A stretch of 64,000 nt of DNA from Flaccisagitta enflata. Its lineage: Eukaryota. The DNA lies in assembly GCA_965153355.1 (NCBI GenBank), contig OZ231126.1:29574001-29638000 (forward strand), in the 5' to 3' direction. The notes under the pieces are model-generated. The model ran no database searches. It was not told the DNA's origin and was given only the letters and a program-made list of their open reading frames with translations. Below are positions 40,463 through 64,000 of the stretch, one piece after another (position 1 is the stretch's first letter; each line of letters opens with the position of its first letter). A program made the position numbers and the translations under genes.

Positions 40463-42634
40463 TTTATGTATTACTATTATTTAGACGAAATCACATGGGA
40501 AATGAACACTGACTGCGCGCACGGAAGTCTGACTGACAAACGGACCGACTGTTCAGACAAATTAAGGTTTCGTTTTTAGGCGCGTGCTAAGCTACGGGAC
40601 ACTACATCCCGCTATGTCGGTCGCGTCGGTCGGTCGGTCGGTTGGTCCCCTTTTTGGGCAGCGGCCCCGGAGGGGTCGATGACCTATGCTTTCACACATA
40701 TGGGGAATTTTTCCTCCTTCTCCTCTTCCGTCTGTTCCCCCCCCCGACTCAAATTCTAGCCTTGAGACCCAAATTCCAGCCTTAAGGCCCAAATTCCAGG
40801 CTTGAGGCCCAGATCCCAGCTTTGAGGCCCAAATCCCATCCTCTAGGCCCAAATCCCATCCTCTAGGCCCATATCCTATCCTTTAAGCCCAAATCCTATT
40901 TTTGAGGCCCAAATTCCATCCTGGCGGCCCAAATCCTATCCCCAAGGCCCAGATCCTATCCTCAAGGCCCAAATCCTATCCTTGAGGCCCAATTCCTATC
41001 CTTGAGGCACAAGTCCCATCCTCGAAGCCCAAGTCTCAGCCTTCAGGCCCAAATCCCAGCCTCCAGGCCCAAATCCCAGCCTCTAGGCTCAAATCCCAGG
41101 CTCGAGACCTAAATCCCAGCCTCGAGACCCAAATACCAGCCTCAAGGCCCAAATTTCAGATAGAGGAGGAGGAGGAGAAGGAGGAGAAAATTCCACATAT
41201 GTGTGAAAGCATAGGTCATCGACCCCTTTGGGGCCGCTGCCCTGCTCCCTCTCTCAACTTCAAGCACAACCTACTTCGGCAGGGCACGGGTACCGCTGAC
41301 CATCTAACGCTTTTGCGACTATTACTTTTTCGGCGTTTTTGAGCTTTTTGAGCCTACTTCTCCTGCCCAAATGCTCTGGTGACCTTCTCCAGCACTGCTC
41401 CTGCCCACGCGAACGCGACTGGGGTAGCCGTGTATCCGGCCTTATTTTACTTTAAATGGTGAGCTGATATATTTTATTCAGAATCAGATTCGTCTACACG
41501 TACAGTTTGAAATTATCATTTGGAGGAAATTTTATAGTCAAGTTTAGATAGTCAATATATTTGACGCATTTATTTCAGTGTTTAATTTTAGGAAGAATTG
41601 GAAGAAATGATAAGTGTAGGAATATTAAGACATCTACCAAAGAATCAAATACAAATCAGGAACAGAAAGGTAAGTTCAAGGGACAAACGCCCTCAAAGAT
41701 TGCGGTACCGATCAATGAAAGCCTTTTAAATTATTTACATAAAAAAATATCGTTATCAGCAGTCTGACACATTTTGATGTGGTAGACTCACGTAGAGAAG
41801 CTTACTCACCTTGCCTTGGTGGGGAAGGTGGTATAATATCAATAATCAACGAACAAACATGTATGTAAATAAGGCAAAGAAAGGTAAAGGGTTTGAGAAA
41901 AAGTGTGTGTGTGTGTGTGTGTGTGTGTGTGTGTGTGTGTGTGTGTGTGTGTGAGAGAGAGAGAGAGAGAGAGAGAGAGAGAGAGAGAGAGAGAGAGAGA
42001 GAGAGAGAGAGAGAGAGAGAGAGAGAGAGAGAGAGAGAGAGAGTTCCGGTCGCGAAAAGATGGGCGAAACGGATATGCCCATTTTCAGAATTTGAATCGT
42101 CGAATCGCTAGTTGGACGGACCGACGGACCGACGGACAACTTCACGGATTAATGATCGGACATGCTTCCTAAACTAAAGAGACGCTGGTTTCTCGAGTGG
42201 AGCAATGGCTGTTTAGTCATTGGACACGGTCGGTGAAGCAAAGAACTACCCACCATCACTCAACGCCAATGGAAGCAAGAGTTCGACCAACGGACCGACA
42301 AACGGACGGACCGATAGACCAACAAAGCAACACACTGAGTCGCGTGTATTCGTCCAAAAAAAGAAATGCCAGCAAAAGTTCTTGTTCAGGCATTACATAA
42401 GATATTTTCAGATTGGTGTGTTTGCACATGCTCAAATAGTTGTTTGAACAAACTCATTTTTGCAAGATAACGGATGCTTGAGTATGGCACAGACTTCCAA
42501 GGCACTCTCAGCACTACATGACCAGGTGTTTATATTTTGAAGAAGTGGGAAGCGCCGCTTCTCGGAAGGGGAAGATATATGTCAGAAGATTGCGAGGAGG
42601 AAGGAGAAAAAAAAGAGGGAAAGAAAGAAAGAAA

Positions 42635-44485
42635 AAATCTTGAAAGAGTATGGGTCCGCGACTGGGGTCAATCAGCGTTGTCAATCAGCGTTGTCAATCA
42701 GCGTTGTCAAACGGCGTTGTCAAACGGCGTTGTCAAACGGCGTTGTCAAACGGCGTTGTCAAACGGCGTTGTCAAACGGCGTTGTCAAACGGCGTTGTCA
42801 AACGGCGTTGTCAAACGGCGTTGTCAAACGGCGTTGTCAAACGGCGTTGTCAAACGGCGTTGTCAAACGGCGTTGTCATGCGGCGTTGTCATGCGGCGTT
42901 GTCATGCGGCGTTGTCATGCGGCGTTGTCATGCGGCGTTGTCATGCGGCGTTGTCATGCGGCGTTGTCATACGGCGTTGTCATACGGCGTTGTCATACGG
43001 CGTTGTCAAACGGCGTTGTCAAACGGCGTTGTCAAACGGCGTTGTCAAACGGCGTTGTCAAACGGCGTTGTCAAACGGCGTTGTCAAACGGCGTTGTCAA
43101 ACGGCGTTGTCAAACGGCGTTGTCAAACGGCGTTGTCAAACGGCGTTGTCAAACGGCGTTGTCAAACGGCGTTGTCAAACGGCGTTGTCAAACGGCGTTG
43201 TCAAACGGCGTTGTCAAACGGCGTTGTCAAACGGCGTTGTCAAACGGCGTTGTCAAACGGCGTTGTCAAACGGCGTTGTCAAACGGCATTGTCAAATGGC
43301 ATTGTCAAATGGCATTGTCAAATGGCATTGTCAAACGTCATTGTCAAACGGCATTGTCAAACGGCATTGTCAAACGTCATTGTCAAACAGCATTGTCAAA
43401 CGGCATTGGCATAAGTTTTGCACATTTATCATTTTAAGGGTGGTAAGCTGGCTGGCTGGTAGGCCAGTTAGCATGCTAAAATCTTTATAAATCAAATTCA
43501 TATGTTGAGTCCTTCCATTTAGGGACTACATACCCAGTTTTAACCAAATCGATCGAAAAATGCCGAAGTTCTGCACGTTTTTCACTTTTAGGCAGGTAGG
43601 CTAGTTGGGTGGTAGGCTGGTTTGGCTGGTTAGCATGCTAAAATCTTTACAATTCAAATACATATGTTGAGTCCTTCCATTTAGAGACTTCATACCAAGT
43701 TTCAACCAAATCGGTTGAAAAATGCCAAAGTTATGCACATTTTTCACTTTTAGGCTGGTAGGCTAGTTGGGTGGTAGGCTGGTTTGGCCGGTGAGCATGC
43801 TAAAATCTATACAATTCAAATACATATGTTGAGTTCTTCCCTTTAGAGACTACATACCAAGTTTCAACCAAATCGGCTGAAAAATGCCGAAGATATGCAT
43901 GTTTTTAACTTTTAGGCTGGTAGGCTAGTTGGTGGTAGGCCGGAGGTCGGTTAGCACGCTAAAACCTTTACAATTCAAACACATATGTTGAGTTCTTTCA
44001 TTTAGAGACTACATACTGCTTTCAAACAAATTGGTTGAAAAATGACGAAGTTGTGCACGTTTTTCGCTTTTAGGCTGGTAGGCTGGTTGGGTGGCAGGCC
44101 GGTTTGGCCGGTTAACATTCTAAAATCTGTACAGATCAAATACATATGTTGAGTCCTTCCATTTAGAAACTACATACCAAGTTTCAACCAAATCGGTTGA
44201 AGAATGCCGAAGTTATGCACGTTTTTCACTTTTAGGCTGGTAGGCTGGTTTGGCCGGTTGGGTGAGTCGGATCATAACATACGCATAGGATGTAAAGCGG
44301 CTTACCCTAGTACAACTTCCCTCCAAATATGAAGCAAATCGGTCAAGGCGTTCAAAAGTTAGCCCATTTTTAAAAGTGTGGACGACGACGACAACAACGA
44401 CGACGACAACGACGACGACAACGACGACACCCACCCGCCTCGAATTATAGTCCGCGTCGGAATGGTATTCCGTCGCGGACAAAAA
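42635..44485 (-). mobile_element. HINE-like element with a 13-bp array (42667-43410) and five roughly 162-bp tandem units (43420-44260); mirrored at about 62183-63985
   Basis: Terminal hairpin GTCCGCGTCGGAAT-GGT-ATTCCGTCGCGGAC next to an A run, matching sub-terminal GTCCGCGAC near 42654. GTTGAGT recurs at 43504, 43666, 43828, 43987 and 44148. Confidence 0.65.
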
Positions 44486-61800: not shown

Positions 61801-64000
61801 TTTTCTTTCTTTCTTTCTTTCTTTCTTTCTTTCTTTCTTTCTTTCTTTCTTTCTTTCTTTCTTTCTTTCTTTCTCTCTTTTTTCTCTTTCATTCTTTCTT
61901 TCTTTCTTTCTTTCTTTCTTTCTTTCTTTCTTTCTTTCTTTCTTTCTTTCTTTCTCTCTTTCTTATTTTCTTTCCTTACTTTTTAAGTCGCGCGCACGCG
62001 ACTCTACAACCCGCTTTGTCCGTCGGTCGGTCTGTCCGTCTGTCGGTTGGTCCGTCACACTTTACTTTTTTTTATCATTTTATTTTTTTGACCTCACTGC
62101 TCCTGCCCAAATGGTCTGGTGACCTCAATTATGGCCCCTGCCCACCCGCACGCGACTTTGGTAGCCGTGTATCCGGCCTTGTTTTTTGTCCGCGACGGAA
62201 TACCATTCCGACGCGGACTATAATTCGAGGCGGGTGGGTGTCGTCGTTGTCGTCGTCGTTGTCGTCGTCGTTGTTGTCGTCGTCGTCCACACTTTTAAAA
62301 ATGGGCTAACTTTTGAACGCCTTGACCGATTTGCTTCATATTTGGAGGGAAGTTGTACTAGGGTAAGCCGCTTTACATCCTATGCGTATGTTATGATCCG
62401 ACTCACCCAACCGGCCAAACCAGCCTACCAGCCTAAAAGTGAAAAACGTGCATAACTTCGGCATTCTTCAACCGATTTGGTTGAAACTTGGTATGTAGTT
62501 TCTAAATGGAAGGACTCAACATATGTATTTGATCTGTACAGATTTTAGAATGTTAACCGGCCAAACCGGCCTGCCACCCAACCAGCCTACCAGCCTAAAA
62601 GCGAAAAACGTGCACAACTTCGTCATTTTTCAACCAATTTGGTTGAAACTTGGTATGTAGTCTCTAAATGAAAGAACTCAACATATGTGTTTGAATTGTA
62701 AAGGTTTTAGCGTGCTAACCGGCCAAACCAGCCTACCACCCAACTAGCCTACCAGCCTAAAAGTTAAAAACATGCATATCTTCGGCATTTTTCAACCGAT
62801 TTGGTTGAAACTTGGTATGTAGTCTCTAAATGGAAGAACTCAACATATGTATTTGAATTGTATAGATTTTAGCATGCTCACCGGCCAAACCAGCCTACCA
62901 CCCAACTAGCCTACCAGCCTAAAAGTGAAAAATGTGCATAACTTCGGCATTTTTCAACCGATTTGGTTGAAACTTGGTATGAAGTCTCTAAATGGAAGGA
63001 CTCAACATATGTATTTGAATTGTAAAGATTTTAGCATGCTAACCAGCCAAACCAGCCTACCACCCAACTAGCCTACCTGCCTAAAAGTGAAAAACGTGCA
63101 GAACTTCGGCATTTTTCGATCGATTTGGTTAAAACTGGGTATGTAGTCCCTAAATGGAAGGACTCAACATATGAATTTGATTTATAAAGATTTTAGCATG
63201 CTAACTGGCCTACCAGCCAGCCAGCTTACCACCCTTAAAGTGATAAATGTGCAAAACTTATGCCAATGCCGTTTGACAATGCTGTTTGACAATGACGTTT
63301 GACAATGCCGTTTGACAATGCCGTTTGACAATGACGTTTGACAATGCCATTTGACAATGCCATTTGACAATGCCATTTGACAATGCCGTTTGACAACGCC
63401 GTTTGACAACGCCGTTTGACAACGCCATTTGACAACGCCGTTTGACAACGCCGTTTGACAACGCCGTTTGACAACGCCGTTTGATAACGCCGTTTGACAA
63501 CGCCGTTTGACAACGCCGTTTTACAACGCCTTTTTACAACGCCGTTTGACAACGCCGTTTGACAACGCCGTTTGACAACGCCGTTTGACAACGCCGTTTG
63601 ACAACGACAACGCCAAGCTGTTGTAACGCCGCTTGACAACGCCGTATGACAACGCCGTATGACAACGCCGTATGACAACGCCGCATGACAACGCCGCATG
63701 ACAACGCCGCATGACAACGCCGCATGACAACGCCGCATGACAACGCCGCATGACAACGCCGTTTGACAACGCCGTTTGACAACGCCGTTTGACAACGCCG
63801 TTTGACAACGCCGTTTGACAACGCCGTTTGACAACGCCGTTTGACAACGCCGTTTGACAACGCCGTTTGACAACGCCGTTTGACAACGCCGTTTGACAAC
63901 GCCGTTTGACAACGCTGATTGACAACGCTGATTGACAACGCTGATTGACCCCAGTCGCGGACCCATACTCTTTCAAGATTTTTTCTTTCTTTCTTTCCCT

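Follow-up and report, generated by a model that had tools for sequence, protein, structure and literature searches.

The window analysed here comprises 64 kb of Flaccisagitta enflata DNA (GCA_965153355.1, contig OZ231126.1, here C1, positions 29,574,001–29,638,000) from a 794-Mb, 9-contig assembly (G000). Its spliced genes mark the organism as an animal, and marine metagenomes contain it. It was studied together with 600 kb of flanking sequence, 664 kb of C1 in all. The window contains the left arm and the beginning of the right arm of a giant gene-bearing palindrome, designated B, which forms one half of a gap-free, 334-kb structure; a second palindrome, A, lies 209 kb upstream of B. Positions are those of the window unless a contig is named.

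The left arm of palindrome B carries an SNF2-family helicase gene (2219–19101, minus strand), presumably ERCC6L, the label given to it in an earlier, sequence-only reading of the window; here the gene is truncated before its Helicase_C exons, and it is complete in the right arm. Exons of glycine N-methyltransferase (GNMT; 36070–36481, minus strand) have an identical copy in the right arm past the window end. The sequence-only reading had asked whether these two genes are mirrored beyond the window, and both are. Nearer the centre lie two exons (48908–49471, plus strand; mirror copy at 57061–57626, minus strand, located by arm alignment) that are probably the 5′ exons of a CLC chloride-channel gene cut by the centre. 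This candidate assignment follows from their upstream copies, which lead on to PF00654 exons, and the exons contain an ESLDY motif that we take to be characteristic of CLC proteins; a direct PDB search with them gave nothing useful, and the Atlas match of one exon stayed below recognition level. A two-exon gene is nested antisense in the CLC intron (51623–52905, minus strand; right copy at 53678–54853, plus strand). It is conserved and has three relatives with 65–99% identity; a Pfam search of 51623–52905 returned no family at E≤0.01 and an Atlas search gave sub-threshold leads at best. The left copy is the derived one, with a 5-residue duplication and two replacements.

Self-BLAST of the window aligned 45,429–53,210 with 61,161–53,373 in inverted orientation (96.4% identity, E=0) and, as a second block, 42,616–45,453 with 64,000–61,209, which bears out the inverted repeat with diverged arms that had been proposed around ~53291. 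Between 42,616–53,210 and the reverse complement of 53,373–64,000 there are 10,313 matches, 109 substitutions and 22 indels. The palindrome had been placed at 42616–64000, with a length of at least 21 kb and a right arm leaving the window; the latter is correct, but the left arm begins at 1,507, making the arms about 52 and 50 kb long. By self-alignment, the left arm occupies 1507–53210 (C1:29,575,507–29,627,210, plus strand) and the right arm runs from 53373 to 64000 and on to C1:29,677,538 (minus strand), 39.5 kb past the window end. At full length, 41.3 kb of the arms can be aligned, with 1.2% substitutions and several multi-kb indels. The differences listed in the sequence-only reading were nearly all recovered by alignment: a 15-nt coding duplication in the left arm (52,687–52,701), within the gene without a Pfam family; two amino-acid changes in the same gene (H/Q at 52,654 and Q/E at 51,895); an additional 15 bp in the right arm (58,642–58,656); a cluster of 9 single-nucleotide polymorphisms (SNPs; 50,194–50,238 vs 56,291–56,335); and unequal counts of microsatellite units and of units in the 13-mer array (57.1 vs 53.1). 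A supposed extra stretch of about 55 bp near 54950–55005 is really a 33-bp insertion (54,972–55,004) plus 6 adjoining SNPs.

The arms of palindrome A are located at C1:29,344,623–29,418,434 and 29,419,125–29,507,896 (74 and 89 kb); 52.6 kb of them can be aligned, with 2.5% divergence, and the centre, about 700 bp long at C1:29,418,830, is degenerate. This palindrome carries two copies each of the CLC gene and of the two-exon gene. Palindromes A and B have in common an 8.7-kb inner segment, s (44545–53240, plus strand, in the window), which is present in G000 in four distinct copies, named AL, AR, BL and BR for the left and right arms of the two palindromes. The left end of s is the fold point of palindrome A and its right end is the fold point of palindrome B; inverted copies of one short interspersed repeat flank the segment.

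Across its 334 kb of C1, the structure is assembled as Y / a- s- / s a X / b s / s- b- Z. The unfolded order is X- a- s- b- Z, because genes continue across a–X and b–Z and the Voltage_CLC exons lie solely in the a arms; for the same reason both arms of palindrome B contain solely the presumed 5′ exons of the CLC gene. A cyclophilin-TPR gene extends out of the right a arm into X; its copy in the left a arm breaks off in mid-exon and is joined there to a repeat through 5 bases of microhomology. The SNF2 gene of the right b arm reaches into Z, where its Helicase_C exons lie, and the copy in the left arm is cut at 1,507. A CLC gene running straight through elsewhere had been named as a sign against a palindrome. 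Two copies of s do continue into Voltage_CLC exons, about 200 kb upstream, but they belong to the second palindrome of the same sequence and not to a separate contig. The segment X also holds a RING finger, a Ribonuc_2-5A domain and reverse-transcriptase open reading frames, and the genes in Z include RCC1-like and Polo-like kinase genes.

At its outer ends the structure is joined at base level, through 1–5 bases of microhomology, to pieces that are also present far away in the genome; the outer joins are at 1,507, C1:29,570,736 and C1:29,344,623. The left b arm adjoins a fragment of a PDZ gene, the right end of which lies at 1–1510 (minus strand) and overlaps the arm by 1–4 bases at the join. 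The fragment (4,775 bp) is 99.6% identical to C1:17.52 Mb, with its first 2,451 bp 100% identical, and this 4.8-kb piece has a novel join at both ends. Near the end of Y, 601 bases match C3:71.57 Mb at 97%. A break within a PDZ gene lacking an intact copy was considered for the outer join and rejected, as the piece turned out to be a fragment whose copies lie at C1:17.52 and 88.2 Mb; searches for the 5′ part of the PDZ gene were uninformative. The 664 kb around the locus contain no N, and gaps elsewhere in this assembly are written as 10 N; a scaffold join as the origin of the palindrome is thus ruled out.

The centre of palindrome B, left unaligned by the arm alignment, is 162 bp long (53211–53372), as had been noted. 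It had also been described as simply unpaired, but comparison with an unfolded copy showed that it comprises a 17-bp inner hairpin, the true symmetry point at about 53,243, and part of a miniature inverted-repeat transposable element (MITE) with its flank, which are absent from the left arm. The symmetry point lies in an eroded remnant (53231–53255) of an 18-bp perfect palindrome; the unfolded copy at 29.41 Mb still has this palindrome intact. The MITE belongs to a 176-bp family with a TA target site and 23-bp terminal inverted repeats, which we take from its features to be Tc1/mariner-like and which has 3,718 first-look candidates genome-wide. A truncated copy occupies 53098–53210 (plus strand), and a complete copy with TA on both sides occupies 53310–53485 (minus strand). 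In unfolded copies, s ends in the 176-bp MITE, followed by a short repeat that starts with the perfect 18-bp palindrome. The right arm of B retains the entire MITE and flank and the left arm lacks 88 bp; the 162-bp ‘spacer’ is therefore the product of a one-sided 88-bp deletion through the MITE in the left arm. Over about 133 bases the spacer departs from the unfolded copy by 8 substitutions and 5 indels, compared with 0.3–0.6% in the arms. A join through the terminal repeats of the MITE can be ruled out, since the symmetry point is outside the element.

The 18-bp motif belongs to a short interspersed repeat and was counted 19,864 times as an exact match in G000, against 0 matches of the reversed control. 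At this density of one motif per 40 kb, the chance that a fold placed at random comes to lie no more than 10 bases from a copy is about 5e-4. Centre A, at the opposite end of s, is likewise situated within this short repeat, here in inverted orientation; it sits at a 4-bp repeat pair, and 150–400 bases near it are altered in both arms of A. According to the available part of PMC7229812, nanopore reads miscall or skip bases after inverted junctions; the alteration at centre A thus gives no date for the junction, as decay in vivo and nanopore read-through errors both fit. The available text of PMC7999016 describes large palindromes seeded by short repeats of 5–9 bp and palindromes stabilised by longer spacers.

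Divergence was counted with repeats and columns near gaps masked. The arms of B differ at 149 of 26,202 sites (0.57%; 0.16–1.14% per 5 kb). The arms of A differ by 2–3% in their outer parts and by 0.15–0.18% in the 15 kb nearest the centre, and the change from one level to the other is abrupt, near 29,403,800; the lowest divergence adjoins both centres. For comparison, an overlap across a gap on C5, probably of two alleles, differs by 2.8%, and two contigs of one public sequencing run (X2, see below), each about 160 bases long, have 3 and 6 differences to the window. The truncated gene copies show no decay. In about 407 coding bases, the cyclophilin copy differs at 3 synonymous and 0 replacement positions; the span averages 3.0%, and a dead copy would be expected to have about 4.6 replacements (P ~0.01). 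The SNF2 copy, with exons chosen by eye from translations, shows 0 differences over nine exons with 1,338 coding bases in total (1,149 + 189), one anchor pair not having been found and no full-length homologue having been retrieved for an SNF2 exon; a dead copy would be expected to have 2.9–4.6 differences (P 0.05–0.01). Patchy rates make the P values for both genes optimistic. Together, the two truncated copies have no amino-acid change in 1,745 coding bases, and the truncations are therefore younger than most of the divergence. The arm divergence is patchy and allele-like and does not look like age, and the arms probably derive from different alleles. The proposal that the duplication is old enough to have diverged, which would have made its persistence notable, is not supported by these data.

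The four copies of s have 65 variable sites in 7,147 columns, 60 of which are private to one copy (BL 12, BR 27, AL 8, AR 13); the remaining 5 split two against two, in two incompatible ways. Many variable sites lie in repeats, where conversion or mis-polishing can act. Four distinct versions with private sites are more than two alleles of one diploid locus can supply. The sequence-only reading had offered, as its other option, two haplotypes joined tail to tail. This accords with arms that are probably different alleles, but a simple artefact of that kind leaves unexplained the four copies of s, the pre-existing 18-bp palindrome at the fold, the second fold-back and the two N-free outer junctions.

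Four of the 24 public runs listed were compared with 52,280–53,500: DNA runs X1, X2 and X3, as contigs, and RNA run X23. The segment s is present in all three DNA sets, and bins at the centre have non-zero depth (183, 31 and 6.9); contig depths (150–180 in X1, 104–184 in X2) were not taken as copy numbers. The private base of the left arm at 52,654 is absent from X1, X2 and X3, and its 15-nt duplication is absent from X1 and X3; the AL base at 53,011 is carried by X1 and X2. A joint 53,261>53,305 in X1 and X3 was considered as an unfolded allele and not used, as one side is just 21 bases long and its letters mismatch the unfolded copy. The run data lean weakly against a fixed palindrome: contigs show presence only, and contig cleaning is apt to remove paths such as a short one of low depth that links two MITE nodes of very high copy number. 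In the RNA run, 1 read among 12.2 million fell on 52,280–53,500; no expression was seen there, and the run gave no information on alleles.

The explanation that we prefer, with slightly less than even confidence, is a real but young compound duplication carried on one haplotype and formed by replication template switching, of the type described as ODIRA (origin-dependent amplification at inverted repeats) or as DUP-TRP/INV-DUP (duplications on either side of an inverted triplication). It draws on the N-free 664 kb, the four versions of s, the motif at the fold and the two fold-backs bounding s, as well as on the alteration of both arms near centre A and the base-level outer joins that cut genes and lead to ectopic pieces. 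According to this explanation, a fork would have reversed at the self-complementary motif, by a leading-to-lagging switch or by hairpin priming, and copied backwards; a second reversal would have followed at the other end of s, as in the inverted triplication of ODIRA. A 126-kb a–s–b duplicate, closed by ectopic templated pieces, could have supplied the second set of flanks. A single exchange between inverted copies of s might then have converted a ‘tandem duplicate plus inverted triplication’ into two giant palindromes with the same parts and junctions. The differences between the arms would stem from different alleles, or from later recombination with them, and not from age; the one-sided 88-bp deletion may represent stabilisation of the centre in vivo or a read-through error. 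Such precursors and conformers are described in the available parts of 10.1101/2023.09.19.558550 and PMC11293582. This is a known kind of rearrangement, and the chances that the giant arms are alleles are about even.

In ODIRA at yeast SUL1, as presented in the available text of 10.1101/2023.09.19.558550, a single segment is delimited by two fold-back junctions, located at short inverted repeats that were already present, and palindromic junctions later gain asymmetry and secondary junctions. Here, centres A and B likewise bound the opposite ends of s, and an 18-bp perfect palindrome exists at centre B in the unfolded copy; the 4-bp repeat pair at centre A is a weak counterpart. The order differs from flank–s–s′–s–flank, in that there are not three contiguous copies with the middle one inverted but four copies of s, grouped as two pairs with 200 kb between them, and the duplication of both flanks spans 43–80 kb; a contiguous triplication would exist only as an isomer. 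With DUP-TRP/INV-DUP rearrangements, in the portion of PMC11293582 available, the locus shares a multicopy inner segment within duplicated flanks, iterative template switches and several conformers. It differs in having a 2-4-2 pattern with at least five junctions in the assembly, instead of 2-3-2 with two cis junctions, and extra ectopic templated pieces. Its substrates are repeats of about 200 bp and an 18-bp palindrome, not kb-size low-copy repeats; the inverted copies of one short repeat that flank s are far shorter than those of the human cases. Because these copy patterns do not agree, the locus is not classed as a member of either group.

Several observations weigh against a real compound duplication. 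No piece of X1, X2 or X3 among the 24 of 14,443 listed covers 53,123–53,305, and X1 has the letters of AL at all three informative sites. The outer arms of A, at 2–3%, are at the level of the probable allelic overlap on C5 (2.8%), and the sharp step to 0.15% at 15 kb from centre A is such as an assembler phase switch would give. The garbled sequence at centre A and in one G-rich motif resembles nanopore fold-back read-through as depicted in the accessible part of PMC7229812. The private sites of AR and BR are on the sides opposite to those predicted by the simplest isomer model. Furthermore, at two of three other loci examined, the inverted copy touches or straddles a scaffold gap.

Among the rivals, the one that survives best is an assembly artefact, in which the locus would be single-copy and its two alleles strung tail to tail by way of one or two fold-back chimeras, from the library or the reads, that were primed at the self-complementary repeat; we consider it possible but unlikely, and give the same low weight to its second part, in which polishing turned two alleles into four mosaics. 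Arm divergence at the allelic level, undecayed truncated genes constrained in both arms, two states at all 65 variable sites of s, the absence of the centre from the listed pieces of all three DNA runs, and a MITE in BR that equals the family consensus, as mis-polishing would give, all agree with it. Fold-backs made up about 0.55–0.6% of the nanopore genomic reads in PMC12870357, and PMC11660948, likewise available in part, was also cited for alleles joined through fold-back reads. The 2013 draft of the rotifer Adineta vaga, a heterozygous small animal, contained ‘palindromes’ with gene-bearing inverted arms and allele-like divergence that turned out to be artefacts and were ascribed to erroneous scaffolding (PMC8494291, in the part available), whereas the joins here are gap-free at base level and the inner segment has four versions. 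An artefact would leave at most two sequence versions, although polishing mosaics could raise that number; mosaics of two alleles need switches within 11–140 bp. Two chimeric fold-backs and at least three other false joins would be needed, all gap-free and all chosen over straight-through reads, and both arms are altered at centre A.

About as doubtful, and also unlikely, is a small inverted triplication of s on one chromosome, with real fold-backs and 8.7-kb arms, mis-threaded with the normal homologue, so that the 50-kb arms would be alleles and no giant palindrome would exist in vivo. The content of the assembly, with two copies each of a and b, four of s and one of each fold-back, is exactly that of a diploid with three plus one copies of s, and the flanks are allele-like with truncated genes under constraint; left unexplained are the two outer junctions, which join ectopic pieces without any N, and the 6 kb past s in palindrome A over which a is near-identical. 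Large gene-bearing inverted arms with a short diverged spacer, near-identical and kept so by gene conversion, are known from sex-chromosome palindromes, whereas the arms here are 98–99.4% identical (in B, 1.2% substitutions with multi-kb indels), the genes are truncated at the centre and ends (CLC and SNF2) instead of forming intact pairs, and there is no sign of fixation. An old palindrome stably kept by such arm-to-arm conversion is probably not what is seen and is very improbable: a spacer drifting unpaired, the low divergence beside both centres and the private differences of the left two-exon gene, all protein-changing at the three coding positions found, would suit it, but the truncated cyclophilin copy is undecayed 74 kb from its centre amid flanks 3% different, at the outer junction a 2.45-kb stretch matches at 100%, which speaks for a very recent event, and the centre is not seen among the listed pieces of the other DNA sets.

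If the compound duplication is real, it is a natural germ-line case of fold-back or template-switch inverted duplication outside yeast and human disease, in which the seed palindrome, the centre deletion and the capped ends can be read base by base and the role of the repeats in gene duplication can be tested genome-wide. We attach no function to it; on balance it adds copies of GNMT, the CLC gene and the two-exon gene and leaves fragments of three genes that lead nowhere. Should it be an artefact, palindromes of this sort, gene-bearing and free of gaps, inflate the gene-duplication counts of the assembly (GNMT, CLC and the two-exon gene).

Inverted duplications were found at all three further loci examined, two of which had been picked for inverted pairs of family hits and one fetched for another reason. 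At C3:9,406,035–9,476,476, a gap-free inverted duplication with PDZ genes has arms of about 30 kb, 5.0% divergent in unique sequence, and a 9-kb spacer. At C5:26,544,522–26,610,682, a direct 17-kb overlap with 2.8% divergence across a 10-N gap looks like a retained haplotig, and a 4-kb fold-back (0.26%) at C5:26.55 Mb ends at the gap. At C1:17,532,767–17,584,816, an inverted duplication with most blocks 92–95% identical straddles a 10-N gap at 17,568,441. The assembly seems to hold genuine-looking and artefact-looking inverted duplications alike; as the 5.0% of the C3 arms exceeds the probable allelic 2.8%, the genome may hold genuine older ones. A bolder suggestion, which we regard as distinctly improbable, is that the short repeat with the 18-bp palindrome seeds fold-back replication genome-wide and that giant gene-bearing inverted duplications are a routine route of gene duplication. 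Arm divergences of 0.3%, 0.6%, 2–3% and 5% would then, with as little likelihood, reflect many ages, with the present locus young and still segregating. Inverted pairs of SNF2-family genes, 90–180 kb apart, are present at C1:30,066,073–30,248,133 and C4:90,359,564–90,450,863, and similar inverted PDZ pairs occur on C4 and C6.

Rfam gave zero matches within the 64-kb window. A separate 1-kb self-inverted element at 19810–20818, 87% complementary, is possibly the remnant of a transposon with long terminal inverted repeats. Tandem arrays are present at 2755–3840 (298-bp units), 42667–43408 (13-bp units) and 43462–44250 (162-bp units).

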